64,000 nucleotides of DNA from an uncultured Acidobacteriota bacterium (GCA_963822445.1 CAWGHO010000003.1:1600001-1664000), one strand, 5' to 3'. Shown: positions 15,295 to 64,000, counted from the stretch's first letter. Numbers and translations: made by a program. Notes: generated from the sequence alone by a model not told the origin.

Positions 15295-15825
15295 ATGCCT
15301 CCTTCGATTTCTGACCCCTTCAGCGATCCGGCGAGCGAGCCCGCGGCCCCACCGCAACGACGTTTCCGCTGGCCCGCCGACTACTACTCCACGGCGACGC
15401 CCAGTGCCGTCCTTCCGCCCTGGGCCACATTCGGCTGCGGCGCTGCCGCGGTCGTCGTGCTGATCATCGTTTTCGTTGGCGGCGCCTTCCTCGGCGGCGG
15501 CGGTCTCAACCAGTTCATGGACTTCGCCCTCGGCATGAGTCTCGGCGAGATGCGCGGCATGTACACGCCCGAAGTCACCAAGGCGCAGCAGGAAACTCTC
15601 GACCGCGAGATGGAAACCATGCGCGCCGGTCTCCGCGACAAGACCATCGCCGTGAAGAACATTCAGCCCGTTCTGCAGACCATGCAGAAAGGCATCAAGG
15701 ACGAGAAGATGACGCCGGCCGAAGTCGAGCAATTGACGGCGGCGGTGCGGAAAGCGAACGGAGCCGCCAAGTCTCAGAGTCGCAAAGTCTCAGAGTCTCA
15801 GAGACCTTCGCGCGTTCTCCTCTGA
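15295..15825 (+). CDS. hypothetical membrane-anchored protein
   Basis: Pro-rich N-terminus, GC-preceded TM helix, helical C-terminus; start 15274 or 15295. Confidence 0.6.
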   Translation: MPPSISDPFSDPASEPAAPPQRRFRWPADYYSTATPSAVLPPWATFGCGAAAVVVLIIVFVGGAFLGGGGLNQFMDFALGMSLGEMRGMYTPEVTKAQQETLDREMETMRAGLRDKTIAVKNIQPVLQTMQKGIKDEKMTPAEVEQLTAAVRKANGAAKSQSRKVSESQRPSRVLL

Positions 15826-15852
15826 GACTCTGCGACTTTGAGACTCTGAGAT
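15769..15852. repeat. inverted octamer tandem array (RAGTCKCA x4 / TGMGACTY x4)
   Basis: Arms at 15769-15803 and 15820-15852 are near reverse complements; ends just before uvrB ATG. Confidence 0.85.
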
Positions 15853-15855
15853 TCC

Positions 15856-17853
<1,998 letters not shown>

Positions 17854-24309: not shown

Positions 24310-26150
24310 TGTCCCGTCTGGAACGCCTCAAGGCGCGCCTCAAAGAAATCCCCGACCGTCCCGGCGTTTACCTTCACAAGAATGCCGAGGGAGAAGTCAT
24401 CTACGTCGGGAAAGCGCGCAATCTCCGCAACCGCGTGAACTCCTACGTGGTCGGCAAGGGTGCGCGAAGCCATCCGCTGACGAACGCGCTGATTCCGGAG
24501 ATCGAAGGCATCGACTTCGTCACCACGAACAACGAGCTCGAGGCGATCCTCCTCGAGAACAACCTGATCAAGGCCCACCAGCCGCGCTACAACATCCTTC
24601 TCCGCGACGACAAGTCGTATCCGTACCTCAAGGTCACTCTGTCCGAGGATTACCCGCGGGTGGTGTTCACCCGGCGGATGGATCGGAAGAAGGGGGATCT
24701 CTTCTTCGGGCCGTTCTTCGCCGGCACCGCGCGGCGGATCCTCAAGCTGGTCGCCGATCAGTTCCAGCTCCGGAGCTGCGATCTCGACATCAGGGAAGGG
24801 AAGAACGCCCTTCTGCGTCCCTGCCTCTACTACGACATGCACCAGTGCCTCGGTCCGTGCGTCGTCGGCCTCACCACGACCGAGGCCTACCGGGAGATGG
24901 TCGACGACGTCGTGCTGTTCCTCGGCGGCAAGAGCAGGGAACTGCAGGACCGGTTGAGGAATCGGATGTACGGCGCGGCCGAGGGGGAGAACTTCGAGCT
25001 TGCGCGGTACTACCGCGATCTGATCCGCACCGTCGAGCGCATCCAGGCCGAGCAGCAGGTGGCCGGGCCGCAGGACGAGGACATGGACGTCTGGGGCCTC
25101 TACGAAGAAGGAGGCGACGTCGCGGTGCAGCTCTTCGTCATCCGCGACGGCAACGTCGTCGATCGCCGCGAGCTGTTCTGGGAGAAGGTCGAGGAGTACC
25201 AGGCCGGCTACTTCCTCAGCGAGATCCTCCAGCGCTACTACCAGGACAACCTGTTCATTCCACAGGAGATCCTGATCCCACTGGATGTGGAGGACAAGGA
25301 GCTGATCGACGCATGGCTGACCTCTACAGCTGGTAGAAAAGTCAGCGTTCGCGTTCCCCAGCGGGGGAAAGGCGTGGATCGCGTGGAACTGGCCAACCGC
25401 AACGCGCGGCTCTCGCATGAGTCCCGTTTCCGGAAGTCGACGCAGGATCGCATTCAGATCGCGACCTCCCGCCTCGGCGCGATCGTCGGGTACGAGGGCC
25501 GCGACGTCGCCAAGATCGAGTCCTTCGACATCTCGAACATCCAGGGGAGCGATTCGGTGGCGGGGATGGTCGTGCTGGACCGGGGGAAGTTCGACAAGAA
25601 GCAGTACCGGGTCTTCAACATCAAGACCGTGGTCGGTGCCGATGATTTTCGATCGATGGCCGAGGCGGTGGACCGGCGGTACCGGCGCCTGCTGGCGGAC
25701 GCGAAGCCGTTGCCGGACATGATCCTCATCGACGGCGGCCGCGGGCAGCTCAATGCGGCGCTCGCGGCTCTGAAGAAACTGGGCATCGAGGAGATCCCCA
25801 TCGCCGGGCTGGCGAAGCGGGAGGAGGAGATCTACATCCCCGAGCGCGAGGAGCCGATCCGTCTGGAGCGCCACGATCCGGCGCTGCAGGTCCTGCAAAT
25901 GGTGCGCGACGAAACGCACCGCTTCGCCGTTTCCTCGCACCGCCGCCGGCGGTCGAATCGCACGCTGCACAGCGAGCTCGATGACCTCCCGAACATCGGC
26001 GCGAAACGCAAACGCCTGCTGATCGAGCGCTTCGGCAGCGTCAGCGCGATCAAACAGGCCAGTGCACAGGATCTGGTCAATGTGCTGGGGCGGAAGGTGG
26101 GGCAGGGGTTGTGGGAGGAGTTGCACCAGACAGTGGGCGGTAGGCAGTAG
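24309..26150 (+). CDS. uvrC: excinuclease ABC subunit C
   Basis: GIY-YIG (PGVY..YVGKA), DDKSYPY, FDISN, DGGRGQ, RDETHRFA, HhH. Confidence 0.97.
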   Translation: MSRLERLKARLKEIPDRPGVYLHKNAEGEVIYVGKARNLRNRVNSYVVGKGARSHPLTNALIPEIEGIDFVTTNNELEAILLENNLIKAHQPRYNILLRDDKSYPYLKVTLSEDYPRVVFTRRMDRKKGDLFFGPFFAGTARRILKLVADQFQLRSCDLDIREGKNALLRPCLYYDMHQCLGPCVVGLTTTEAYREMVDDVVLFLGGKSRELQDRLRNRMYGAAEGENFELARYYRDLIRTVERIQAEQQVAGPQDEDMDVWGLYEEGGDVAVQLFVIRDGNVVDRRELFWEKVEEYQAGYFLSEILQRYYQDNLFIPQEILIPLDVEDKELIDAWLTSTAGRKVSVRVPQRGKGVDRVELANRNARLSHESRFRKSTQDRIQIATSRLGAIVGYEGRDVAKIESFDISNIQGSDSVAGMVVLDRGKFDKKQYRVFNIKTVVGADDFRSMAEAVDRRYRRLLADAKPLPDMILIDGGRGQLNAALAALKKLGIEEIPIAGLAKREEEIYIPEREEPIRLERHDPALQVLQMVRDETHRFAVSSHRRRRSNRTLHSELDDLPNIGAKRKRLLIERFGSVSAIKQASAQDLVNVLGRKVGQGLWEELHQTVGGRQ

Positions 26151-26160
26151 GCGGTAGGCG
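26131..26160 (+). repeat. heptamer tandem array CRGTRGG x4 spanning the uvrC stop
   Basis: CAGTGGG CGGTAGG CAGTAGG CGGTAGG. Confidence 0.75.
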
Positions 26161-26215
26161 GGGGAACCAGTGCGATAATCGCCGCGGTCCACGACAACGC
26201 GCGAAAAGACGAGGG

Positions 26216-30690: not shown

Positions 30691-32764
30691 GTGCCGCCGC
30701 CCACCCCTTCCACCGAGATCCAATACATCAAAGGTGTCAGGCCCGGTCGCGCGGCCGCCCTGAAGGCGGCGCGGGATCGACGACGATCCGCGATCTCCTT
30801 TACTTTTTTCCCTTCCGCTACGAGGACCGCCGCCACCCGACCCGCATCGCCGACCTCGGCCGCACATCGACGTCCCGGTGCTGCTGCGCGGCCGGGTCGT
30901 CTCCGCGCACGCCAGCGTCTCGCCCCGACGCAAGATGCGGCTGTTCGAGGTCGTCCTCGAGGACGGCACTGGCTCGGTGAAGCTGATCTGGTTCAACCAG
31001 CGCTACCTGGCCGATCAGATCAAGCGGGGCGATCAGCTCGCGGTTTACGGCCGCCGCGCGTCGGCACGTACGGCTCGCTGGCCATCGAATCGCCGGATTG
31101 GGAGAAGTTCGAGGGGGATGAGGCTGAGGAAGGAGCGATCGTCCCGATCTACTCGAAGGTCGCCAACATTCCTCCGAAGGCGTTGCGGCGGATTGTGGCC
31201 ACGGCGCTGGAGACGCTTCCGGCGCTACCCGATCCGCTGGCCGAGGACCTCCGCAAGCGTCTCGTTGTCGGCGACCTCGCCAGCGCGCTCCGCGAGATCC
31301 ATCAGCCGCGCGAGCTCACACCGCAGTTCCTCAGCCAGCGCTCGCCTCGCCCATCTCCGGGTGATCCTGCAGGAATTCTTCACCTTCCAGCTCGCGCTGC
31401 GCGTGCGGCGCGTTACCGAAGAGACGAAGAAGAAGACGCGCAAGGTCAACATCGACGAGCCTTGCGCGCCGAGGTCAAAAAGATCCTGCCGTTCAAACTG
31501 ACAGGTGCACAGAAACGTGTGCTACGCGAGATCGCCGCCGACCTGCGCAGCGAGCAGCCGATGTACCGCCTGCTGCAGGGCGACGTCGGCAGCGGCAAGA
31601 CCATCGTCGCCCTCATCGCGGCGATGATCCTGCATCCGCAACGGACACCAGGTCGCGTTGCTCGCACCGACCGAGATTCTGGTCGAGCAGCACTACCAGC
31701 GTATCCGTCAACTACTTGACCAGTCAGTGGTGGTGGCCCGCGCGACCGGTTCGATGAGCGCCGGCGAGCGGCGTACGCTGCAGGCCGGATTACGCGAGGG
31801 CTACATCCAGCTGGCCATCGGCACGCACGCCCTCCTCGAGGAAAAGATCGCTTTCAAGTCCCTCGGCCTGGCCATCGTCGACGAGCAGCACCGCTTCGGC
31901 GTCGAGCAGCGCCAGAAACTTTTTGCAAAGGGTGACCTGCCCGACATCCTGGTCATGACCGCGACGCCGATTCCGCGATCGCTCGCGCTGGCGATCTACG
32001 GCGACCTCGAGCTGTCCGTCATCGACGAGCTACCTCCCGGCCGGCAACGGATCAAGACGGCGGTGCGCGCCGCGCATGAAGTCGAGCGCGTTTACGACTT
32101 CATCGACGCCGAGATCGCCGACGGCGCGCAGATCTACATCGTCTACCCGATCATCGAGGAGTCGGAGAAGTCGAACCTCAAGCCGCTCACAATCGGTTTC
32201 GAGCAGACGCAGAAGCGCTTTCCCAATCGCCGCGTGGCCATGATGCATGGGCGGATGAAGTCAGACGAGAAGGAAGAGGTGATGCAGCGCTTCAAAGGCG
32301 GCGAGATCGACATCCTCGTGGCCACGACGGTCATCGAGGTCGGCATCGACGTTCCGAACGCCTCGATGATGTTGATCGTCGACGCCGACCGCTTCGGTCT
32401 CTCCCAGCTGCACCAGCTTCGCGGCCGCGTCGGTCGCGGCGAGCGCAAGTCGTACTGCGTGCTGCTGCACGACGTGAAGATCACCGGCGACACGAAGGAC
32501 CGCCTGCGCGCGTTCGAAAAGTCGCGCGATGGATTCGAGGTGGCCGAGGCGGATTTGCAGAGCCGGGGACCGGGAGAGTTCCTGGGAACGCGGCAGTCGG
32601 GGGCGATGAAGTTTCGGATGGGCCACATCCTTCGCGACTACGATTTGATGGAGAGGGCGCGGGACCTTTCCATCGCCCTGGTGGCCGAGGATTTCAGGCG
32701 TGCAGAAGCGACCGCGAAGGACCTTCTGGGCATGACCGTTCCCGCGGCCACGGCGCGGGATTGA
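30691..32764 (+). CDS. recG: ATP-dependent DNA helicase RecG (frameshifted, probably errors)
   Basis: WFNQ wedge, LLQGDVGSGKT, DEQHRFG, TATPIPR, QLRGRVGRG, RGPGE. Confidence 0.93.
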
Positions 32765-49281: not shown

Positions 49282-49471
49282 CTCCAAGTTCCGCTACGTG
49301 CTGCTGGTCTCGAAGCGCGCGGAACAGTTGATTCAGGGAGCCCAGCCCCGAACCAAGAGCAAGCACGCCAAACCGACGCGTGTGGCCATGGAAGAGGTTG
49401 AGAAGAATCAGGTGAAGTGGCAGCTCACGGCCCCGGTCGAGGAATCGACGGCGCTGGAGAACGAAGAATAG
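49256..49471 (+). CDS. rpoZ: RNA polymerase omega subunit
   Basis: DSKFRYVLLVSKRAEQL, KP..VAMEE; gmk-rpoZ-coaBC synteny. Confidence 0.92.
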   Translation: MEGLPEGVDSKFRYVLLVSKRAEQLIQGAQPRTKSKHAKPTRVAMEEVEKNQVKWQLTAPVEESTALENEE

Positions 49472-49546
49472 TTGTCGGGTTGTCAGGTGATCAGGTTGTC
49501 AGGTCTCATCCACCGGACACCCGACAACCCGACAACCGGACAACCT
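49471..49546. repeat. inverted octamer tandem array (GTTGTCRG x4 / CCGACAAC x4)
   Basis: Fills the rpoZ-coaBC gap; arms at 49471-49504 and 49512-49546. Confidence 0.85.
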
Positions 49547-49549
49547 GCT

Positions 49550-51120: not shown

Positions 51121-51795
51121 ATGACGGACGACGTCCTCCACGAGCTCGCGGTGCTGCGCGATTTCGGCTTCACCCACCTCGATCTACAAAGCGTCGCAGT
51201 TCCCCCAGCAACCCAGCAACCCAGCAACCCAGCAACCGGCGTCAGCGACTGGGACGCCCTCGCCGCCGAAGCCCACGACTGCCGCAAATGCAGCCTCGCC
51301 AACGGACGCACCACCGTCGTCTTCGGCGTCGGCAATCCGAACGCGGACCTGATGTTCATCGGCGAAGCACCCGGCCGCGATGAGGACCTGAAGGGCGAGC
51401 CTTTCGTCGGCAAAGCGGGTCAGCTGCTCACCGACATCATCAAAGCGATGAAGCTGACCCGCGACGACGTCTACATCGCCAACGTCATCAAGTGCCGCCC
51501 GCCGGACAATCGCAATCCCGAGCCCGACGAGCTCGATGCCTGCCGCCCCTTCATCCGCCGCCAGGTCGAGCTGATCAATCCCAAAGTCATCGTCACCCTC
51601 GGCAAGTTCGGCCTGCAGAGCCTCACCGAGAAGAGCTACGGCATCACCGCCATCCGCGGACAGTGGCTCGACTACAACGGCATCAAGCTCATGCCCACGT
51701 ACCACCCCGCGTATCTGCTCCGCACGCCCGCGGCGAAGAAGGATGTGTGGGCGGACATGAAGAAGGTGATGGCGGAGCTGGGGATCTCGTTTTAG
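51121..51795 (+). CDS. uracil-DNA glycosylase family 4
   Basis: C..C.L Fe-S motif, GEAPG, PFVG, KCRPP.NR.P, YHPA. Confidence 0.93.
51204..51237 (+). repeat. CCCAGCAA x4 octamer array inside the UDG linker
   Basis: four perfect copies; same unit family as 61750-61788. Confidence 0.85.
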
Positions 51796-51798
51796 ATG

Positions 51799-51889
51799 GA
51801 GTTACGGGGTTTCGAGGTTTCGGGGTTTCGAGGTGGTTCTCTCGTCGCATTGACCCCGCAACCTCGTAACCCCGCGACCTCGTAACCCC
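51799..51889. repeat. inverted octamer tandem array (GTTWCGRG x4 / ACCYCGYR x4)
   Basis: arms at 51799-51834 and 51853-51889; ends directly at priA ATG. Confidence 0.85.
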
Positions 51890-54323
51890 ATGCCCGGCCT
51901 CTCCGAATACGCCCAGATCGCGATCCCCGTCGCCGTCCACGACACTTACACCTACCGCATCCCTGAGCCGCTCCGCGACGCGGTGCGTCTCGGCTCGCGC
52001 GTCGAAGTTCCGCTCGGCACCAAGACCACGACGGGATTCGTGATCGCGCTGCTCGACCAGACCACCGTCGACGCGAAGAAGATGAAGCCGATCCGGGCCG
52101 TGCTCGATGATGAAGAACCGGCGCTGATTCCGGAGATCATCGACCTCTGTCGCTGGGCGGCCGAGTACTACATCGCTCCGCCCGGCGAAATGCTGCGCGT
52201 GGCGTTGCCCGCGAACATGGCCGCGCGCGGACGGCGACAGGCGGTGCTGACCGGCGACGCGGCGATGATCGAAAGCGCGATCGAGCGCAAACAGATTCTT
52301 CCCGCGGACCTGGCCGTCGTCGACGAGCTTTCCAAACGGCCCGTCGCCCTCAATTCCCTGTTCGAAGACATGAAGGTGTCGCGATCGGCGATCGAGCGAT
52401 TGCGCGATGCCGGGATCATCGCCATTCACGATCGTCTGCGCGATGCCGAGGGCGTGCGTTACGACCGGTTCGTGATTCTCGAAAGCGCACCTGGACCGCT
52501 CACGCCCAAGCAGGAAGCCGCGGCGGACTTGTTGCGTGCGCGTGGCGGCGAGCTTTCCGTTCGTGCGCTCGAGCATGGCGGCGTGAGTGCGTCGGTTCTT
52601 TCGGCGTTGCTGAAGAAAGGGGTCGTGCGCATCGAGCGCCGCGCGCGCCGTCACACCCTCGACGCCTTCCTGGCCGGCCTCGGCGAAGTGCCGACGGGCG
52701 AGATCACCTACTCGGACGAACAACGCGCTGCAATCGCCGCGGTCCGTCCGGCCCTGGGCACATTCGCGCCGTTTCTTCTCGAAGGGGTCACCGGGAGCGG
52801 GAAGACCGAGGTTTACATCGAGTTGATGCGGGAAGTGGTGAAGCGGGGAGAGCAGGCCATCCTGCTCGTGCCGGAAATCTCGCTGACGCCCGTCTTCGCC
52901 TCGCGATTGAAAGAGCGCTTCGGCGAGCGCATCGCCATCCTGCACAGCAACCTCTCCGCGAGCGAGCGTTACGACCAATGGTGGCGCGCGCGGCGCGGCG
53001 AAGTCGACGTCGCGATCGGTCCGCGTTCCGCGCTCTTCACGCCGTTCCAGCGGCTCGGACTCATCGTCGTCGACGAAGAAGGCGACGGTGCCTACAAGCA
53101 GGAAGAAACGCCGCGCTACAACGCGCGCGATCTCGCTGTCGTGCGCGCGCAACTGCGCAAGATTCCGGTCGATTCTCGGTTCAGCTACGCCGTCGCTCGA
53201 ATCGCGCGAGAACGCCGCTCGCGGCAAGTACACGTTGCTTCGAATGACCGCGCGCGTTGAGGCACGGCCGCTACCGGACGTGGAGATCATTGACTTGCGC
53301 AAAGAGCGCGCGGAGAAGGAAGACAAAGGCTTCGTCATCTTCTCGACCGATCTGAAGAGAGCGCTGCACGAGACGTTCGAGGCCGGCGAGCAGGCGATCA
53401 TCCTCATCAATCGCCGCGGCTACGCGCCGTACCTGCTCTGCCGCGAATGCGGCCACGAGTTCCGCTGCCGCGACTGCAGCGTGACGATGACCGTCCATCG
53501 CCGCGAGGGTCTGCTGATCTGCCATTACTGCGGTCTCAGCGCGCAGATGCCGAAACGCTGTCCGCTCTGTCAGGGCGAAGTGCTGCAGCCGATCGGCTTC
53601 GGCACGGAAAAGGTCGAAGAACGGTTTCTGCGCGATTTTCCGGGCATTTCCTCGGCTGTTCTCGATCGCGACTCGACCCGTAAGAAAGGATCGCTGGTCG
53701 GGATCCTCGATCGCTTTCGTCGCGGCGAGACGCGGGCGTTGATCGGCACGCAGATGTTGAGCAAGGGCCACCACTTTCCCAGCGTCACCCTCACCGCCGT
53801 GCTCAACGCCGACTCGATCCTCGGCTATCCCGACTTCCGGTCCGCGGAGAAGACGTTCTACCTGCTCACCCAGGTCGCGGGACGCTCCGGCCGCGGCGAG
53901 TTGCGCGGGAAGGTGCTGATTCAAACCGCTTTTCCGACGCATTACGCGATTCAGCACGCGCTGCGGCATGACTACGAGTCGTTCTACGAAGCGGAGATCC
54001 AGTTCCGCAAGACGTTTCACTACCCGCCGGTGACGTCGATGATCGCCATCCTCTTTCGCGGCGAGAATCTGACCGACGTCGAGCGCGCCGCGACCGAATG
54101 CGGCCGCATGCTGGAGGAGGCACTCGAGCCACAGGCCGGATCACGCATTCAGGGACCGGCCGCGGCGCCCCTCGCTCGCATCAAAGGCGTCTGGCGGTTT
54201 CAGATCCTGTTGCGCTCGCCTCAGCGGATCGCACTGCGCCGCGCGGTCGAAGCGGTGATGCTTCCGCGAAAGTTCAAAGGAGTGGACATCGCCATCGACG
54301 TCGATCCGATTAACATTCTCTGA
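51890..54323 (+). CDS. priA: primosomal protein N' (1-nt insertion near 53171)
   Basis: [27 protein letters not shown], CxxC zinc pairs, QVAGRSGR, DVDP. Confidence 0.95.
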
Positions 54324-55589
54324 ATGCTCGCCGAGCTCGTTCTCGTGACCCGCCTCCTCGGACTCCTCAGAGGCGAATACCAGGTCGCGATTCAGGTCGA
54401 TCCGAAAGTCGCGCGGGTCGATCTTCTGCGCGACGGCCAGATCGCTGCGACCGTCAAAGGCGCGCCGTGGCAGGCCTTGCTCAATTTCGGCGAAGAGCTG
54501 GTTCCACAGGAGCTCACCGCGGTCGCCTACGACGCGAACGGCACCGAAGTCGGACGGGACACGCAGCTCGTGAATCTGCCGCGTCCTCCCGCGGAAGCCT
54601 CGATCGATCTGCGGCGCGAAGCGAACGGCTTACGCGCGACCGTGCTATGGCAGCACATCGCCTCCGCGAACATCCGCCACATCACCTGGAAGCTCGACGG
54701 AAAGGATCTCGGAGGGGACGGCCCGACGGTGCTGCTTCCGCCGTTCGAAGCGAAGAATCTGCATGTCGTCGAAGCCGCGGTGACGTTCCGCGACGGCGTC
54801 GTCGCGCGGCACGAGCGCGTTTTCGGCGGCGTGTTCACCGAGGAGGTGCCGACCGAGCTGACTGGGATCGTGGTTCGCCGTGAGGAGGGTTCTACCGATC
54901 TCGCGCGCTGCTTCAGTCTGCGCGGTGACCCTGTTCCGGCGGCGGCCGTCGAGCTGGGGGATTCACCGATCGTCATGTTTGTGCGCAATCCTGATGGTGC
55001 GCAGGCCCGGTACGCGTTGGGAAAGCTCAGCCCCGGCGGGAACGTCAATCGATTCGACCTCGCCTCCGACGTCCGGATCATCTGGCCGAATGCGACCGCG
55101 ATCGTCGCGAAAGAAACGCGGTTCGTAACGAACCTGTTCGAGCACACTCAGGTCATCCCCGGGAAACGCGGCACGTATGAATTGCTAACCGGCGGAGCAC
55201 GGCCGCGGAAGATCGAGCATCGTTATGCCGACGCGGTTGCGGTCGCGGGGCTTCACGCGGCCCTCGGAGCGCGGCGGCGCGCGGTCGTACTGGTGCTCGG
55301 AAGCGAGAAGGATCACAGCCGTTTGAATGCGCAGGTGGTTAAGCGTTACCTCGAGCGGATCGGCGTGCCGCTGCAGGTCTGGTCGCTGCTCCGTTCGAGC
55401 AAGAACATCGCCGCGGTCTGGGGAGATGTGGTCGATGTTTCCGATCAGAAGAAGCTGCAGCGCGCGACCGCGGATCTGCAGAGAGACCTCGATGAGCAGC
55501 GCGTGGCCTGGTTGCCGTTGAAGCCACTGGATGCGCTGAAGGTGGAGACCGAGGAAGACTGCGCGCTCGAGCCGGTCGCGCGGCCGTAA
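54324..55589 (+). CDS. hypothetical protein: Ig-like N-terminus + degenerate VWA-like C-terminus
   Basis: ELTAVAYDANG..VG.D Ig motif; ADAVAVAG...RRAVVLVL...D.S. Confidence 0.6.
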   Translation: MLAELVLVTRLLGLLRGEYQVAIQVDPKVARVDLLRDGQIAATVKGAPWQALLNFGEELVPQELTAVAYDANGTEVGRDTQLVNLPRPPAEASIDLRREANGLRATVLWQHIASANIRHITWKLDGKDLGGDGPTVLLPPFEAKNLHVVEAAVTFRDGVVARHERVFGGVFTEEVPTELTGIVVRREEGSTDLARCFSLRGDPVPAAAVELGDSPIVMFVRNPDGAQARYALGKLSPGGNVNRFDLASDVRIIWPNATAIVAKETRFVTNLFEHTQVIPGKRGTYELLTGGARPRKIEHRYADAVAVAGLHAALGARRRAVVLVLGSEKDHSRLNAQVVKRYLERIGVPLQVWSLLRSSKNIAAVWGDVVDVSDQKKLQRATADLQRDLDEQRVAWLPLKPLDALKVETEEDCALEPVARP

Positions 55590-56289: not shown

Positions 56290-57244
56290 ATGAGCGCCGA
56301 CCCGACGCAGTTCGAAGAGCCAATCCTCCGTATTCGGCGTCGCATCGATGAGCTCACGGCACTGGAGTCGGAGCCGGCGCGGGAAGCTGAGATCGCTGAG
56401 CTGCGGACGAAGCTTACCAAAGTCTCCTCTGAAATCTACTCGAACCTCACCCCTTGGCAGAAGACGCTGGTCGCGCGCAACGCCCAGCGGCCCTACACCC
56501 TCGACTTCATCGCCATGATGTTCGAGGAGTGGACGGAGATCCACGGCGACCGCAAGTTCTGGGACGACATGGCCGTGGTGACTGGATTTGCCCGCTTCCG
56601 GGGCACGCCCTGCTGCGTGATCGGCCATCAGAAGGGGCGGAACACCAAGGAAAAGATCGCCCGCAACTTCGGCCAGCCCCGTCCGGAAGGCTTTCGCAAG
56701 GCGCTTGCGGGTGATGAAGCTGGCGGAGAAATTCAAGCTGCCGATCTTCACCTTCATCGACACGCCAGGGCGCGTATCCCGGCATCGGCGCCGAAGAGCG
56801 CGGACAGGCCGAGGCCATCGCCGTGAACCTGCGGGAGATGGCCGCGCTGAAGGTGCCGATCATCGTCACGGTGATCGGCGAAGGCGGCAGCGGCGGCGCA
56901 CTGGCGCTCGGCGTCGGCGATCGCGTCCTGATGCTCGAGCATGCTGTCTACTCGGTCATCTCGCCCGAGGGATGTGCCGCGATTCTCTGGAAGAACTCGG
57001 CCGCTGCACCGGATGCCGCGGCGGCGCATGAAGATCACCGCCGAGCGATCTCAACAAGCTCGGCGTCATCGACGAGATCGTCCCCGAGCCCAACGGCGGC
57101 GCGCACGCCGACCCTGCCGCGGCAGCCGAGCTGCTCGCGCCTTACCTCGAGCGCGCGCTCAAGGACGTGCAGAAGTTGAAAGGGCCGGCGCTGCTGGACG
57201 AGCGGTTCAAGAAGTTCAGGAAGATGGGGGTTTTCGAGAAGTAG
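56290..57244 (+). CDS. accA: acetyl-CoA carboxylase carboxyltransferase alpha (frameshifted, probably errors)
   Basis: [57 protein letters not shown]. Confidence 0.93.
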
Positions 57245-57294: not shown

Positions 57295-58963
57295 GTGATC
57301 CACGACCTCTGGACCCTCGCCACACCACCCCCTGACAACCCGCGGATTCCCATCGCCAACGCGACGTTGCGCTCGCTGCTCATCCGTCGCGGCGTCGAGG
57401 ACGAGGAGTCGTACCGGCGGTTCGTCGCGCCGGCGATCGGCGATCTGCACGACCCTCCACGATTCACGGAATCGACCATGCCTGCGAGCGCATCGCCCGC
57501 GCTGTTCGCGACAAAGAAGGGATCGTCATCTACGGCGACTACGACGTCGACGGCGTCACCTCGATCGTCCTGCTGCAAACCGTCCTCAAGTCCCTCGGCG
57601 CGGACGCCGGCTTCGTCGTCCCGCATCGCCTCGTCGACGGCTACGGACTCAAGACCGAAGTGCTGGAGCGCGTGCTGGCCGAGCGGAACGTAAAGCTCGT
57701 AATCACAGTGGATTGCGGCATCACCAGCATCGAGCCGGTGCGTCGCGCGCTCGGCCCAGGGCATCGACGTCATCATCACCGACCACCACCTGCCGCCGGG
57801 CGAGCTTCCCGATGCCGCGGCGGTGCTGAATCCGAAGCAGCCCGGATGCGAGTATCCGTTCAAGGAGCTGGCGGGAGTCGGCGTGGCCTTCAAGCTCTGT
57901 TGCGAGTTGATCCGCCGGGCGGGGAAGAAGATCTCCATCGACTCGCTGCTGAAGATCGCCGCCATCGGTACCATCGCCGACGTCGCACCGCTGATCGGCG
58001 AGAACCGCACCATCGCCAGCCTCGGACTCGCCGGTCTGGCCACCGTCCGGAACGCCGGTCTTCGGGCGCATGTTGCGGCGCCTGGGCCTCGAAGGGCGGC
58101 CTCTACGAGCGGTAGACGTCGGCTTCAAGATCGGACCACGAATCAACGCCGCGGGACGCCTCGCATCCGCGAATACGGCCATCGATCTTTTCGCGGCGGT
58201 TGATGAAGAAGCAGCGTGGGAGCTCTGCGCGGAGCTCGACCGGATGAATGTCGAGCGCCAGCAGATCGAGCTGCAGGTGCGCGAGGCGGCCGAAGCGCAG
58301 GTGCTTGGCGGCGAGCGCATCCTGATCCTCGCCGGCGAGGGCTGGCACCGCGGGGTCCTCGGCCTGACCGCCGGCCGCATCGCCCAGCGCTATCACCGTC
58401 CGACGCTGGTCATGACCATCGAAGGTGACCTGTGCGTCGGTTCGGGCCGCAGCATCACCACCATCAACCTGCACGAGCAGCTCGACGCGGTGCACGAGCT
58501 CTTCACCCATTTCGGCGGCCACGAGTTCGCCTGTGGTTTTTCGCTCGAGACGCGCAATCTGCCGGCTCTGCGCGAACTGCTGCACGCACGCTTCGCCGCG
58601 ATCGACGAAGAGCGTTTCTGCCGCGAAGCCCACATCGACGCGACGCTGACGCTCAGCGAGGTCGGCGAGGAGTTCCTCGCCGCACACGAGATGCTCCAGC
58701 CTTTCGGTGCCGGCAATCCGCAGCCGCTGTTTCTCATCGAGAACGTCGAGATCACCGGCACGCGCACGTTTGCGGAGGATTGCTGCGAGCTGTCGCTGAA
58801 GGACGCGACGGGGAGGGCGGTGGGGGTGTTGTGGCCGAGCGCGAAGCAGCTCGCCGGTGCGATCGCGAAAGGGCCTTTGGATCTGCTCGTGAAGCTCGAG
58901 CCGGATCGGTATCACGCAGCCCGGCTCGAGATCGTCGACGCGCGCGTCACCGCATCTGCGTAG
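57295..58963 (+). CDS. recJ: ssDNA exonuclease RecJ (frameshifted, probably errors)
   Basis: YGDYDVDG, TVDCG, TDHH, GTIADV, PRINAAGR, GSGRS, GGH, PFGAGN. Confidence 0.93.
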
Positions 58964-59375
58964 CCGGTTTCACGAACCCCCGGTGGCAGGTCGTGCAATT
59001 CACCGTGGCCTCGGTGTTGTCGATGTGGTCCATCGTCGCCAGCTTTTTGTTCAGCTCCTCGGTCATCAGGATCATTTCGCGAGCGGCGTTCTTGGGCCGC
59101 TTCTCGTCGGCCTCCCAGCGATCCTCGCTGTGGCAATGGTCGCAGCCGACGCCGAGGGAGCGGGAGTAGCCGATGTCCATGACGCGGAGGAAGCGGGCGG
59201 CCGGCATCGACTTGAGAATCGTGACGTTCCTGAAGACTTCGCCGGCGGGCCGGTTCTCCTTGCCTTTGATGGCCTGGAGCAGCTCGGTGACGTGGTGGTT
59301 TTCCTTCGGAGCCTCGCCGGCGCCGAGAAAGAGGAACATCGCGGCGAGCGCGACCGCAACACGGATCCGCATCAT
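58947..59375 (-). CDS. secreted diheme c-type cytochrome (reaction-centre cytochrome c-like family)
   Basis: AGGAGG RBS, signal peptide, CDHCH and CTTCH, FRNVTIL, AREMILM. Confidence 0.85.
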   Translation of the reverse strand: MMRIRVAVALAAMFLFLGAGEAPKENHHVTELLQAIKGKENRPAGEVFRNVTILKSMPAARFLRVMDIGYSRSLGVGCDHCHSEDRWEADEKRPKNAAREMILMTEELNKKLATMDHIDNTEATVNCTTCHRGFVKPATQMR

Positions 59376-59449
59376 GACCTCCTGATGTCGGCCGATCGTA
59401 CACGGCGGTCGGAACGAATCCCGTGGCGAAGGTGTTACGGCCCAACGAC

Positions 59450-61412
59450 ATGCAGCGCACAGTCCGAGTCCTGCGCATCGCGCTGCCCATCCTCTTCGTC
59501 GGTTTCGTGGCCGTGCTCGTCCTGAGTTGGAACCGAAGCACAGCCGGAACCCGCAAGACGAACACTGCTCCGGTCACCTCCACCCAGCGCCCGAACGACA
59601 AAGGTCTCGTAGAAGGCATGGCCTTCGAGGACGTGCAGACGATCGGCGGGCGGGTCGTCTCGCGGATTCGCGCGCGCCGGGTCACGTCGCATGAGTCGGG
59701 CTGGGCCACGCTCGAAGAGGCGTACCTGACCGTGTACCGCGCGAATGGTCTGACCTACGAGGTGGCCTGTCCGCAGGCGCAGTTCCACGCCGACACCAAG
59801 GAGGCCGAGGCCAAGGGCGGTGTGAGCGTGACGTCGAGCGACGGCATTTCGCTGAAGACCGCGGAGATCAAGTTCGACGGGAACCGGCTCACGAATGATG
59901 TGGCGGTGGAGTTCACCATCGATCGCTGGCAAGGCAAGGCCGGCGCGCTCGATCTGGATGTCGCCGGCGAGACATTGCGCCTGCACAAGAACGTTACTGC
60001 GGTGATGACACCGGCCAGCCCGACGGAGCTGCCGATGACCCTGAGCGGCGAGCAGAGCATCTTCCATCGCCGCGACAACACAGTCAGCCTTCGAAAAATC
60101 GGTGGAGATGGTGCGCGGCCCGGAGAACGTGAAGGCCGATTTCGTGATCGGACGCTTCACCCAGGACCGCAAGCAGATCATCGGCCTCGAGGGCAACGGC
60201 AACGCCAAGATCGTCATGGCCGGGTCCACTGCACCAGGCGAAGACCTCGGCGGCCGCAAAGAGATCACCTGCGACGGGTTCTTCACCGAGATCGGACCCG
60301 GTGGCGAGCTCACCGCGATCAACGCCCGCAGCGCGGAGAACCTGGCGAAAGCGATCCTCGACGGGCCGCCGCGCCGCGAGATCACCGCGCGTGGGTTCCG
60401 CGTGGCGCTCGCGAACAAAGCGGTCACCGAGATCAAAGCCGACTGGCAGGTGGTGATGAAGGAGCTCGGTCCGGCGCCGCGCGAGATTCTCTCGGAGCAT
60501 GTGACCGTTTACTTCGATCCGAACTCGCGGCGCGCCCGCTCGGCGTATCTCGAAGGCAACTTCCGCTACACCGATCCGAAGACCACCGCGTCGGCGTTCC
60601 GCGCGAACTACGACATCGCTGGCGATCGCATCGTGCTGACCACCGATCCGGGCTGGCAGGCGACAGTCGTCGCCGACGGCCACACGCTGAAAGCGAAGCA
60701 GATCGAGTTCTCGCCGCGGGGCCAGACCGCACGCGCATCCGGCGCGGTCATCGCCCAACTCGCGTCGAAGGGGAAGGGAACCGTATCGGCTGACGCGACG
60801 ACGCTCTTTCCATCGGGCAAACCGGTCTTCGTGAATGCCGACGAGCTGCTGATGCGGCAGGCCAATCGCACGGCGGTCTTCACCGGCAACGTGAAAGCCT
60901 GGCAGGACACGAACACGATCCTCACCGATGAGCTGCAGGTGCAGGGAGCAGGCGACGGCGTGACCGCGCGCGGCAACGTGCGCACGATGCTCTACAACAG
61001 TGCCGACCCGCAGCGCCGCACGCCGGTGCAATCGACGAGCGATCAGATGATCGCGCGCAAAAGCGACAAGCGCATCGACCTGGTCGGCAAAGTCACGATC
61101 ATCGACGACGCCCGCCGCCTCGAATCGGAGAAGGCCTCGTTCTTCTTCACCGACGCGCAGAAGATCCAGCGCATCGAGGCGGAGACGAACGTTCGGGTGA
61201 ACGAGATCCCGACGCAACGCAAAGGCGTCGGCGACAAGGCCACGTACAACGTCGACAAGAAGATGATCTACCTGTACGGCTCGCCGGCAACGGTCACCGA
61301 TCCTCGCGGAACGCTGCACGGAGGCCAGATCCTCTTCGATCTGAATCGCAACAAGGTTCAGGTCATCAGTCCGAGCGGTCAGACCACGGGAACGTACAAG
61401 CACGAGGGGTGA
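59450..61412 (+). CDS. lptC: fused LptC-LptA (OstA beta-jellyroll) LPS transport protein; 1-nt insertion near 60089
   Basis: N-terminal TM, jellyroll repeats, FTGNVKAWQ; removing one C joins ...NTVS|FEKSVEMV; upstream of lptB-rpoN. Confidence 0.75.
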
Positions 61413-61432
61413 CCAACCCGCCCGCCTGACCG

Positions 61433-61460
61433 GTTGCTGAGTTGCTGAGTTGCTGGGTAG
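61433..61460 (+). repeat. left arm octamer array GTTGCTGR x3
   Basis: GTTGCTGA GTTGCTGA GTTGCTGG GTAG. Confidence 0.85.
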
Positions 61461-61469
61461 GATCGGCGC

Positions 61470-61757
61470 GTGTTTGTGACTGTCTGGAAGTTCGTCGTGC
61501 GACCCGAGCGTGCTGCTGAATTTGAGCGGCACTACGGACCGGATGGCTCCTGGGCAGAGCTGTTCCGTCGTTCAGCCGGGTACGTTCGAACGGAGCTGTT
61601 TCGCGGTGACCAGCACGAGTACATCACCATCGACTACTGGGAGAACGCCGACGTCTACCGCGAGTTTCGAGACCGTCACGCTGCCGAGTACGAACGGTTG
61701 GATGCACGGATGGAGGAGCTGACCGAGCGTGAAGAGGCGATTGCCACAACAACCTAG
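61470..61757 (+). CDS. antibiotic-biosynthesis-monooxygenase-like (dimeric alpha/beta barrel) protein
   Basis: FERHYG..G.WA.LF....GYV.TEL, YITIDYW; TAGGAT 6 nt upstream of GTG. Confidence 0.8.
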   Translation: MFVTVWKFVVRPERAAEFERHYGPDGSWAELFRRSAGYVRTELFRGDQHEYITIDYWENADVYREFRDRHAAEYERLDARMEELTEREEAIATTT

Positions 61758-61788
61758 CAACTCAGCAACCCAGCAACTCAGCAACCCC
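61750..61788 (-). repeat. right arm octamer array YYAGCAAC x4, inverted relative to 61433-61460
   Basis: CTAGCAAC TCAGCAAC CCAGCAAC TCAGCAAC. Confidence 0.85.
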
Positions 61789-61805
61789 AATACAATGCCC
61801 TCCGC

Positions 61806-62597
61806 GTGACCGAACGCTACAAAGTTACCCCCGACGTAATCAACGACACCACCGCCGCCGCGCCGCAGGGTCTGCGGCTGGCGGCGTCGCATCTGGTGAA
61901 GGTCTTCAAGAGCCGCAAAGTCGTGCGGGACGTGTCGGTCGAGATTCAGCAGGGGGAGATCGTCGGGTCTTCTCGGGCCGAACGGGGCGGGGAAGACCAC
62001 CACCTTCTACATGATCGTCGGCCTGGTCCGCCCGGACGACGGCACGGTCACCCTCGGCGACGACGACATCACCGACCTGCCGATGTATCTCCGTGCGCAA
62101 CGCGGCCTCAGTTATCTGCCGCAGGAGCCGTCGGTGTTTCGCAAGCTCACCGTCGAAGAGAACCTGATGTCGGTCTTCGAGACCATGCGCCTGCCTCTCG
62201 CGGAGCGCGAGCGTCGCACGCAGCAGCTTCTCGAGGAGTTCGGAATCACGCACATCGCGCGGAGCAGGGCCTACGCGCTTTCAGGGGGTGAGAGGCGGCG
62301 TGTGGAGATCGCCCGCAGCCCTCGCCATCAACCCGGCATTCATCTTGCTAGATGAGCCGTTTGCAGGAATCGATCCAATCGCGGTGTTCGAAATCCAACG
62401 CATCGTTTCGCAGCTTCGGGCGCGTGGGATCGGCATTCTGATCACGGACCATAACGTGCGGGAAACTTTGAAGATCACGGATCGCGCCTATATCATCAAA
62501 GAAGGTGAGATCTTCCGGGCCGGGAGTGCCGGAAAGTCTCTCAGCCGACGCAGAGGTCCGCCGCATCTATCTCGGCGAACAATTCAATCTCAACTGA
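61806..62597 (+). CDS. lptB: LPS export ABC ATPase LptB (frameshifted, probably errors)
   Basis: [56 protein letters not shown]. Confidence 0.93.
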
Positions 62598-62629
62598 CCG
62601 GAGTCGGCACCACAGACGTACCTACCGTA

Positions 62630-64000
62630 ATGGCACTTGAACAAAAACTACATCTAAAACTCAGCCAGAAGCTGATCATGACGCCGTCGTTGCAGCAGGC
62701 GATCAAGCTGCTGCAACTCTCGAAGCTCGAGCTCCAGGAAGTCCTCAACCAGGAGCTGCTGGAGAACCCCCTTCTCGAGGAGACCGCCGAAGAAGCGAAG
62801 GCCGAGGAAACGCCCGCCGAAGAGACCGAGGCGAAGAGCGAGACCGACGAGCCGCCGAAAGTCGAGACCCAGGACAAAGACAAGGATTCGTTCGACGAGA
62901 TCGACTACGACGCCTACTTCCAGGACTACATCGAATACGGCTACAACCCCCGGGGGATGTCCGAGGAGCACGAAGAGTTCCCGATCGAGAACACCCTCAC
63001 CCGGCCGCCCAACCTCGCCGATCACCTGACCTGGCAGCTCTCCATGTCCGACGCCTCACCGCGGACCAAGGAGATCGCCCAGTTCATCATCGGCAACATC
63101 GACGAGGACGGATACCTCCGCGCCTCGAACGACGAGATCGTGGCCTCGGGCAACTTCGAGCCGGAAGAGGTGGAGAAGGCCGTCGCCGCGGTGCAATCCC
63201 TCGATCCGATCGGCGTCGGCGCGCGCGATCTTCGCGAGTGCCTGCTGCTCCAGCTCCGCTTCCTCGAGATCGACGAGCCGCTCGTCGAAGTCGTCATTCG
63301 CGATCACTGGGACGAGTTCATGCAGCGCAAATTCGTCCCCCTGGCGAAGTCCCTCGGTATCGACATGAAGTCTCTCGAGGGCATCGTTGAGATCATCAAG
63401 CACCTCGATCCCAAGCCCGGGAGGAAATACTCCAATGAGCGAGCGATCTACGTCGAGCCCGATGTTTACGTTCATAAGGTTGGGGACGAGTACGTAATCG
63501 TTCTGAACGAAGACGGGATGCCCAAGCTGCGCATCAACAGCGGCTACCGCTCGATGCTCAACTCGATGGATTCCAAATCGGATGGCGAGACCGTCAACTA
63601 CATCAAGGACAAGATCCGCTCCGCGGTGTGGCTGATCAAATCGCTCGACCAGCGCCAGCGCACGATCTACAAGGTTGCCGAGTCGATCGTGAAGCACCAG
63701 CGGGAGTTCCTCGAAAAAGGCATCGACTTCCTCCGCCCGCTGGTTCTGCGCGACGTGGCCGACGACATCCAGATGCACGAGTCGACCGTCTCCCGCGTCG
63801 TTTCCAACAAGTACATGCACACGCCGCGCGGCCTGTTCCTGATGAAGTACTTCTTCCACAGCGGCATCGACTCCGATACCGGCGAAGACATCTCCTCGCT
63901 GACCGTGAAGAAGAAGATCCAGAGCTACATCGAGAACGAGGATCCCCGCAAGCCCCTCAGCGATTCGAAGATCATGAAGATCCTCAACGACGAGGGCATC
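62630..64000 (+). CDS. rpoN: RNA polymerase sigma-54 factor (runs off window)
   Basis: [59 protein letters not shown]. Confidence 0.96.

Follow-up and report, generated by a model that had tools for sequence, protein, structure and literature searches.

The window, by which we mean the whole 64 kb stretch of DNA analyzed, comes from a Thermoanaerobaculia (Acidobacteriota) genome, and the locus described here has lptC, lptA, lptB and rpoN as its neighbors. Coordinates refer to the plus strand unless stated otherwise. Upstream of the locus, Pfam and NCBIfam models recognize LptC and LptA domains (59423..61412) in a coding region that a frame change near 60.1 kb splits into one ORF starting at 59423 and a second spanning 60102-61412. 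In relatives, lptC-lptA is a single fused gene of about 655 aa; among the 120 homologs listed, 115 are at least 643 aa long and nearly all carry both domains. The left arm begins 21 nt past the lptA stop codon (61410-61412) and consists of three tandem octamers of the form GTTGCTGR (61433..61456). It is followed by a TAGGAT hexamer (61458..61463) placed 6 nt before the GTG start (61470) of a 95-aa ABM-family gene that ends in a TAG stop (61470..61757). The right arm (61746..61785) comprises four inverted octamers (61754-61785) and, ahead of them, a degenerate fifth unit (61746-61753). The ABM stop codon (61755-61757) falls within the first full unit of this arm, and the degenerate unit overlaps the final three ABM codons, so that the C-terminal tail of the protein is array-derived sequence. 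Just past the right arm lies TACAAT (61791..61796), a -10-like box of lptB located 9 nt before the lptB GTG (61806). The lptB gene encodes an ABC ATPase (61806..62560) with frame changes near 61970 and 62320, and rpoN follows from about 62600. A sequence-only reading of the window had reported this layout, from the three octamers and the 95-aa gene through the four inverted units with the stop codon in the first of them, and each of these elements can be read at the locus.

Frame-split or truncated genes occur elsewhere in the window as well, the affected genes being lptC-lptA, lptB (twice), accA, recG, priA and recJ (59423-61412, 61806-62560, 56290-57179, 31658-32764, 51890-55589 and 58070-58963, respectively). 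These split housekeeping genes look like the product of an indel-rich long-read assembly, not real pseudogenes. The ABM ORF can be aligned with its homologs over the full length and is thus unaffected by the assembly's indels. Just upstream of lptC, a small multiheme cytochrome c with a domain of the photosynthetic reaction-center cytochrome type is encoded on the minus strand (58947-59375).

The ABM ORF scores 24.9 bits against the Pfam ABM model (cut-off 23.1) and has 48 homologs in our searches, with profile matches to SnoaB and TT1380 at about 1e-6. Its predicted structure has a pLDDT of 96.5, and the nearest solved folds to this model are again TT1380 and SnoaB (TM 0.82). The cargo is a genuine ABM-family gene, and family assignment together with the predicted fold indicates a ferredoxin-like, cofactor-independent oxygenase-type protein. 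Its composition is foreign to the window, with a GC3 of 0.684 versus 0.829 +/- 0.041 and a codon score of 0.085 versus 0.339 +/- 0.079 in 36 reference genes of the window, both more than 3 sd under the values of those genes.

The signal that starts ABM expression can be read in two ways. The sequence-only reading had the left arm running into a -10 hexamer 6 nt before the GTG; the position is as described, and the identity of the hexamer as a -10 box is matched by an equally good reading as a ribosome-binding AGGA. TAGGAT may be the -10 box of a leaderless message, which is weakly favored by the back-read codons of the homolog P0008, where TA..AT is kept and AGGA is lost at the corresponding position. 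Alternatively, the hexamer may hold a Shine-Dalgarno AGGA (61459-61462), eight bases upstream of the GTG. No complete sigma-70 site turned up in a simple scan for promoters.

Repeats of the ABM arm type are strongly enriched in the window. A two-unit pattern with at most two mismatches has 10 matches, against 0.16 expected and a largest shuffle value of 2; six of the ten lie within the ABM arms, and a solitary array at 51206-51236 accounts for three more. For the 7-mer core, 22 occurrences compare with 6.55 expected. Three further hairpins in the window are empty, and the sequence-only reading had already placed them at 15.8, 49.5 and 51.8 kb: a tandem-octamer hairpin upstream of uvrB (15761..15851), a second tandem-octamer hairpin that starts at a stop codon between rpoZ and coaBC (49471..49547), and, in the gap that separates priA from the uracil-DNA glycosylase gene, a hairpin built on a 16-nt compound unit (51801..51889). 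Each has its own unit, and all three end 0-5 nt before an ATG. One of the four pairs in the window is loaded. A refuting condition named with the sequence-only reading, the lack of any other gene-enclosing array pair in the genome, thus holds for these 64 kb.

The solitary array (51204..51237) holds 4.2 copies of the ABM right-arm unit, in frame in the N-terminal part of the uracil-DNA glycosylase ORF. Arrays or full hairpins inside the N-terminal part of this ORF are also found in relatives (L033 1309-1387, L014 1107-1179 and L017 306-403). They come after a conserved short N-terminal segment, and either form a variable linker or separate that segment off as a small ORF of about 27 codons. 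At the end of uvrC, the window contains a lone tandem heptamer array (26131-26161) without a nearby inverted partner.

The survey of such repeats covered 668 kb, made up of the window and the loci of 40 relatives, each genome being represented by about 20 kb. The names attached to these 40 loci and to the LptA homologs are the basis for assigning the window to Thermoanaerobaculia. Among tandem arrays with 2.8 copies or more, periods 7 (92 arrays) and 8 (49 arrays) dominate, with three arrays of period 10 and one of period 11. Inverted pairs of same-unit arrays separated by a loop of at most 400 nt number 46 under TRF criteria, a lower bound since these criteria missed the window's 51.8-kb hairpin; 32 pairs have period 7 and 12 have period 8. 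Their stems comprise 24-62 pairs (-35 to -102 kcal/mol), and their loops are mostly 4-40 nt and at times 60-96 nt long. The left arm contains more G than C in 40 of the 46 pairs. In 20 of the 46 its start is within 6 nt of a stop codon that closes a frame of 80 codons or more, as compared with 3.6% of random positions, and the stop codon is frequently formed by the first bases of the array's first unit. Only two of the 46 inverted pairs enclose a gene, namely the ABM locus of the window and a junction in the relative L031 described below.

The units themselves are many, with four different ones in the window alone and dozens across the loci, and most are without G-runs. One unit can recur at non-orthologous loci of different genomes: that of the window's 15.8-kb hairpin is shared with the lptA-lptB junction of L017 and with a site 3 kb upstream of lptA in L007 and L021. 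Within a single genome, two hairpins of L010 that lie 16 kb apart (88-171 and 16689-16758) have an identical octamer unit and an identical order of variant units around loops that differ, which points to some copy-and-paste or conversion process between loci. Non-tandem, REP-type long palindromes were also seen at the junction or beside a tandem array (L003 2610-2720 and L013 11350-11453).

Several familiar roles were considered for these hairpins. As canonical Rho-independent terminators they would have the very stable stems required, but at least five T residues in the 8 nt after the hairpin are present in only one of the 46, and none follow the ABM right arm, and this identity was rejected. 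A role in translational coupling, with the hairpin bridging a stop codon to the next start, was likewise set aside, as a start codon lies within -6 to +15 nt in 8 of the 46 versus 27% of random positions. Selection for the stem in the sense transcript was also rejected: the sense strand has 101 G-U pairs in the stems and the antisense strand 99, and of 45 hairpins, 22 fold more stably as the sense strand. No Rfam family was matched (E <=1) in 58000-64000.

The junction at which the ABM gene resides is complete in the loci of 34 relatives. A tandem-repeat hairpin is found there in 13 of the 34 by TRF criteria and in about 18 by eye, an ordinary hairpin in four, and half an arm or nothing in the remaining loci. 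The empty hairpins at this junction carry differing units among relatives. The proposal that the ABM locus is the loaded form of the empty hairpins is thereby borne out in structural terms, as the very same junction bears an empty hairpin in at least 13 of the 34 relatives and, in L031, a different unit with a different cargo. The L031 hairpin has a 251-nt loop with a gene for a 73-aa YgiT/MqsA-like zinc-finger protein, arranged as four 7-mer units, a ribosome-binding site, the zinc-finger gene and four inverted units; the stop codon of this cargo is 15 nt from the right arm. Longer homologs of the zinc-finger protein showed no array-like extensions. In the LptA tree, junction units are common only to very close relatives and differ between sister genomes, and L011, the sister of L031, carries a different left arm and unit.

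Additional genes are present at or near the junction in 9 of 36 loci, mostly as toxin-antitoxin pairs, and the lptCA-lptB boundary is an insertion hotspot for small accessory genes. These insertions take various forms: a reverse-oriented DUF5694 gene ahead of an empty hairpin (L004), a HicA/HicB pair after which a right arm stands alone (L008), an empty hairpin with nearly the window's unit followed by an uncharacterized 100-aa ORF (L009), kilobase inserts ending in a PIN-toxin pair (L015, L021 and L027), insertions after lptA (L018 and L029), and the loaded hairpin of L031. A kilobase insert with a sensor kinase was also seen among the junction-region insertions. In about 28 of 35 aligned junctions, by a count made by eye, a TGn+TAnnnT box is followed 7-12 nt later by the lptB start, and the box is without a conserved -35 element. 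TACAAT is the window's variant of this box, so that the sequence-only assignment of an lptB signal just past the right arm agrees with what is kept in most relatives. Judged from this alignment, lptB very probably has its own extended -10-type, -35-independent promoter with a very short leader. The junction would tolerate insertions because lptB is supplied with this promoter of its own.

The distribution of the ABM gene speaks to its history. A tblastn search detected it in none of the 40 loci, in which LptA is 51-73% identical to that of the window. Four pairs of ABM homologs (63-83% identity) and LptCA homologs (84-92%) derive from same-source contigs of equal size (3901, 6721, 9941 and 2696), and these matching contig sizes suggest that, in the closest metagenomic relatives, ABM adjoins lptCA. 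In public protein sets the arms have been translated as spurious N- or C-terminal extensions of ABM proteins (P0008, P0009, P0010 and P0015), which give a view of flanking DNA that is otherwise inaccessible. In P0009, 18 of 20 residues of the C-terminal read-through match the window's right arm and lptB box in the +1 frame; in P0010, 10 of 12 residues of the N-terminal read-through match the left arm and spacer, also in the +1 frame. The ABM proteins themselves are 78% and 77% identical to that of the window, respectively. Both arms, with the window's unit, thus exist in relatives at 77-78% ABM identity. As read from these translations, the arms are better conserved than the cargo and are most likely under constraint. 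At a greater distance, in P0015 (64% ABM identity), the lptB box seems to follow ABM nearly at once, leaving space for no more than one unit; based on 9 residues, this hints weakly at a shortened or missing array. No copy of the ABM locus was found in the plasmid or phage DNA searched.

These observations do not favor the mobile, self-contained cassette that had been proposed from the sequence of the window, given that ABM is absent in 40 of 40 distant relatives, that the arms are kept in relatives at 77-78% identity, and that plasmid and phage copies were not found. Two of its component observations do stand. No recombinase or transposase is present among the 53 predicted window proteins, and there is no sign of target duplication: a flank repeat of at least 4 nt accompanies 1 of 44 hairpins versus 5.4% of controls, with hairpin boundaries that are approximate.

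On balance, we lean toward an old, vertically inherited insertion of the ABM gene into a hairpin at this hotspot, and not an active cassette. The two arms would be halves of one tandem-repeat hairpin belonging to a class that is placed just past stop codons, and the ancestral lptCA boundary would already have borne such a hairpin, as it does in most relatives. A minimal foreign gene, consisting of a start signal and an ORF, would have come into the loop of this pre-existing hairpin in an ancestor of the window's clade, after which gene and arms would have been inherited vertically together and fixed at the locus. Units differ between sister genomes, and for this reason the arms could also have come with the cargo or have formed after it. 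Placement within the loop may be due to chance, since two in-loop cases among about nine insertions are not clearly above the loop's share of the junction.

Consequences of this arrangement for the transcript can be suggested from folding. The minimum-energy fold of 61415-61805 (-157.8 kcal/mol, z = -2.69) has the arms paired around the cistron. In a transcript reading through from lptCA, or in one started at TAGGAT, the arms would presumably pair in vivo as in the predicted fold, forming a stem of about 25 bp around the whole ABM cistron. This stem would close off the upstream lptCA message as a 3'-end, stability or processing structure, without a U-tract and upstream of the lptB promoter. 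It could thereby take part in termination, stability, processing or insulation of the lptCA message, roles to none of which the strand test lends support. Pairing of the arms may equally act at the level of DNA, or it may have no role.

A different origin of the arms, which we regard as unlikely, would have them grown in place: an armless ABM gene would first have been inserted by the lptB promoter, an array would then have arisen by slippage at its stop codon, and an inverted upstream copy would have followed by template switching or by conversion from a hairpin elsewhere in the genome. The habit of the lineage is compatible with such growth, in that arrays start at stop codons in 20 of 46 pairs, the right arm here likewise beginning at the ABM stop and reaching into the last codons, in that units turn over between sister genomes, and in that the right-arm unit also forms a solitary array at 51.2 kb. 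The homolog P0015, in which ABM and the lptB box seem to be separated by one unit or less, would fit an armless precursor, although its reading is based on 9 residues. Matching inverted arms around a 300-nt spacer would need two coordinated events, however, and neither the empty hairpin of nearly the window's unit at the L009 junction nor the 15 nt separating the L031 stop codon from its right arm is readily accommodated by slippage at the stop of the cargo.

That the ABM locus is instead a mobile single-gene element appears quite unlikely. Here the arms would be foldback- or MITE-like terminal inverted repeats served by a recombinase encoded elsewhere, and the empty hairpins would be non-autonomous copies. 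The occurrence at one site of two loaded hairpins that differ in unit and cargo, the other unit in the sister of L031, the L010 copies with the same unit and variant order at distant loci, and the recurrence of the 15.8-kb unit at non-orthologous loci (the L017 junction and L007/L021) would all be expected of mobility, as would the foreign codon usage of ABM and the extreme compactness of the cargo, which amounts to a start signal and an ORF only. Set against this are the missing target duplications, the 53 window proteins that include no transposase or integrase, and the many unrelated units inside one genome. The gene, moreover, appears to be confined to the lptCA-lptB site and was not found in 40 other loci, plasmids or phages, with both arms kept across relatives, and the two loaded pairs among 46 share a junction where genes are inserted outside the loop as well.

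A broader proposal is that these repeats form a prokaryotic counterpart of foldback elements, in which hairpins are spread or rebuilt at stop codons without target duplication, their loops capture, carry and perhaps exchange single minimal genes, and the lptCA-lptB boundary serves as the docking site of an integrase-less cassette system; we consider it improbable. Still more doubtful is allelic replacement, by which arms and cargo would be swapped together between strains through homologous recombination in the conserved lptCA and lptB-rpoN flanks: protein identities of 82-92% for the lptB fragment and 80-94% for RpoN in nearly all loci (a few RpoN matches being fragmentary), the diversity of the inserts and the differing junction content of sister genomes are in keeping with it, but it leaves the position of the gene inside the hairpin unexplained.

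If the old, vertically inherited insertion is the correct reading, the locus would represent a little-known class of structural repeat, in a phylum with many uncultured members, that holds its position just past stop codons even though its units turn over from one sister genome to the next. The lptCA-lptB boundary would then be a landing pad within a core operon for small accessory genes and toxin-antitoxin pairs, and the ABM locus a rare case of a whole protein gene in the loop of a long-range stem of about 25 bp. A long-range stem that encloses a gene is the geometry of ribosomal RNA processing stalks, and the ABM stem could insulate or process one cistron. Should the foldback proposal hold instead, it would amount to a new route of gene capture without a recognizable recombinase. 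For annotation, hairpins of this kind become spurious N- and C-terminal protein extensions in public sequence sets.

In the literature searched, we found no description of such hairpins in Acidobacteriota, no REP work on Thermoanaerobaculia, and no protein gene described in the loop of a tandem-repeat hairpin. Among known systems, a link to integrons had been raised on account of the unit cores. An integron cassette has one attC hairpin 3' of its ORF, and cassettes are stacked beside an integrase gene. The ABM locus shares with cassettes a single promoter-poor ORF delimited by short structured repeats, and with cassette arrays the diversity of cargo at one site. Unlike in a cassette, the two arms of one hairpin lie here on opposite sides of the ORF, and the window has no integrase. 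The attC core has the consensus GTTRRRY, and relative to this consensus the GTTGCTGR unit is mismatched by pyrimidines at positions 5 and 6, so that the integron link is not sustained.

RAYT genes are themselves flanked by inverted REPs, a layout close to that of the ABM gene; the cargo here is an ABM gene, however, and not a RAYT tyrosine (Y1) transposase, and no RAYT-like gene is present in the window. REPINs are inverted pairs of short palindromic repeats with a spacer between them that are vertically inherited and abundant in intergenic regions (PMC3337134, PMC3116915). A REPIN population consists of one conserved sequence family per RAYT, whereas the hairpins of Thermoanaerobaculia have many units and arms that are tandem arrays. 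In Beggiatoaceae and cyanobacteria, tandem heptamers of the sequence TAACTGA are common between genes, where their placement relates to the ends of genes (PMC4679880). They differ from the hairpins here in being direct repeats: a single unit is used, the arrays precede start codons, and just one of 170 sets is inverted (PMC4679880).

Foldback transposons of the Tetris/FB type, from eukaryotes, have a middle domain of variable size and content between terminal inverted repeats that themselves contain tandem repeats, and most copies are without a transposase (PMC4079207). The hairpins here likewise have terminal inverted repeats built of tandem sub-repeats on either side of a variable middle. 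The eukaryotic elements make 8-10-bp target duplications and are kilobases long (PMC4079207); here no duplications were detected, arms measure 24-40 nt, and the host is a prokaryote.

In Xanthomonas, GGGAATC heptamer arrays are intergenic and occur as 70-75 convergent, opposite-strand pairs per genome (Rehm et al. 2015, PMC4692102). Paired arrays can form stem-loops or cruciforms, and closely related species keep them at the same site with differing length and sequence (PMC4692102). Convergent tandem 7-nt arrays lying close together in intergenic regions are what we see here too (46 pairs, 32 of them with period 7). A Xanthomonas genome uses a single G-rich unit, which has the potential to form G-quadruplexes, in contrast to the dozens of unrelated 7- and 8-nt units of Thermoanaerobaculia, and the hairpins described here further differ in starting at stop codons and in holding, on two occasions, a whole gene in the loop. 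Of the systems described so far, the paired heptamer arrays of Xanthomonas come closest to the hairpins of Thermoanaerobaculia, with the same architecture and the same persistence of sites.
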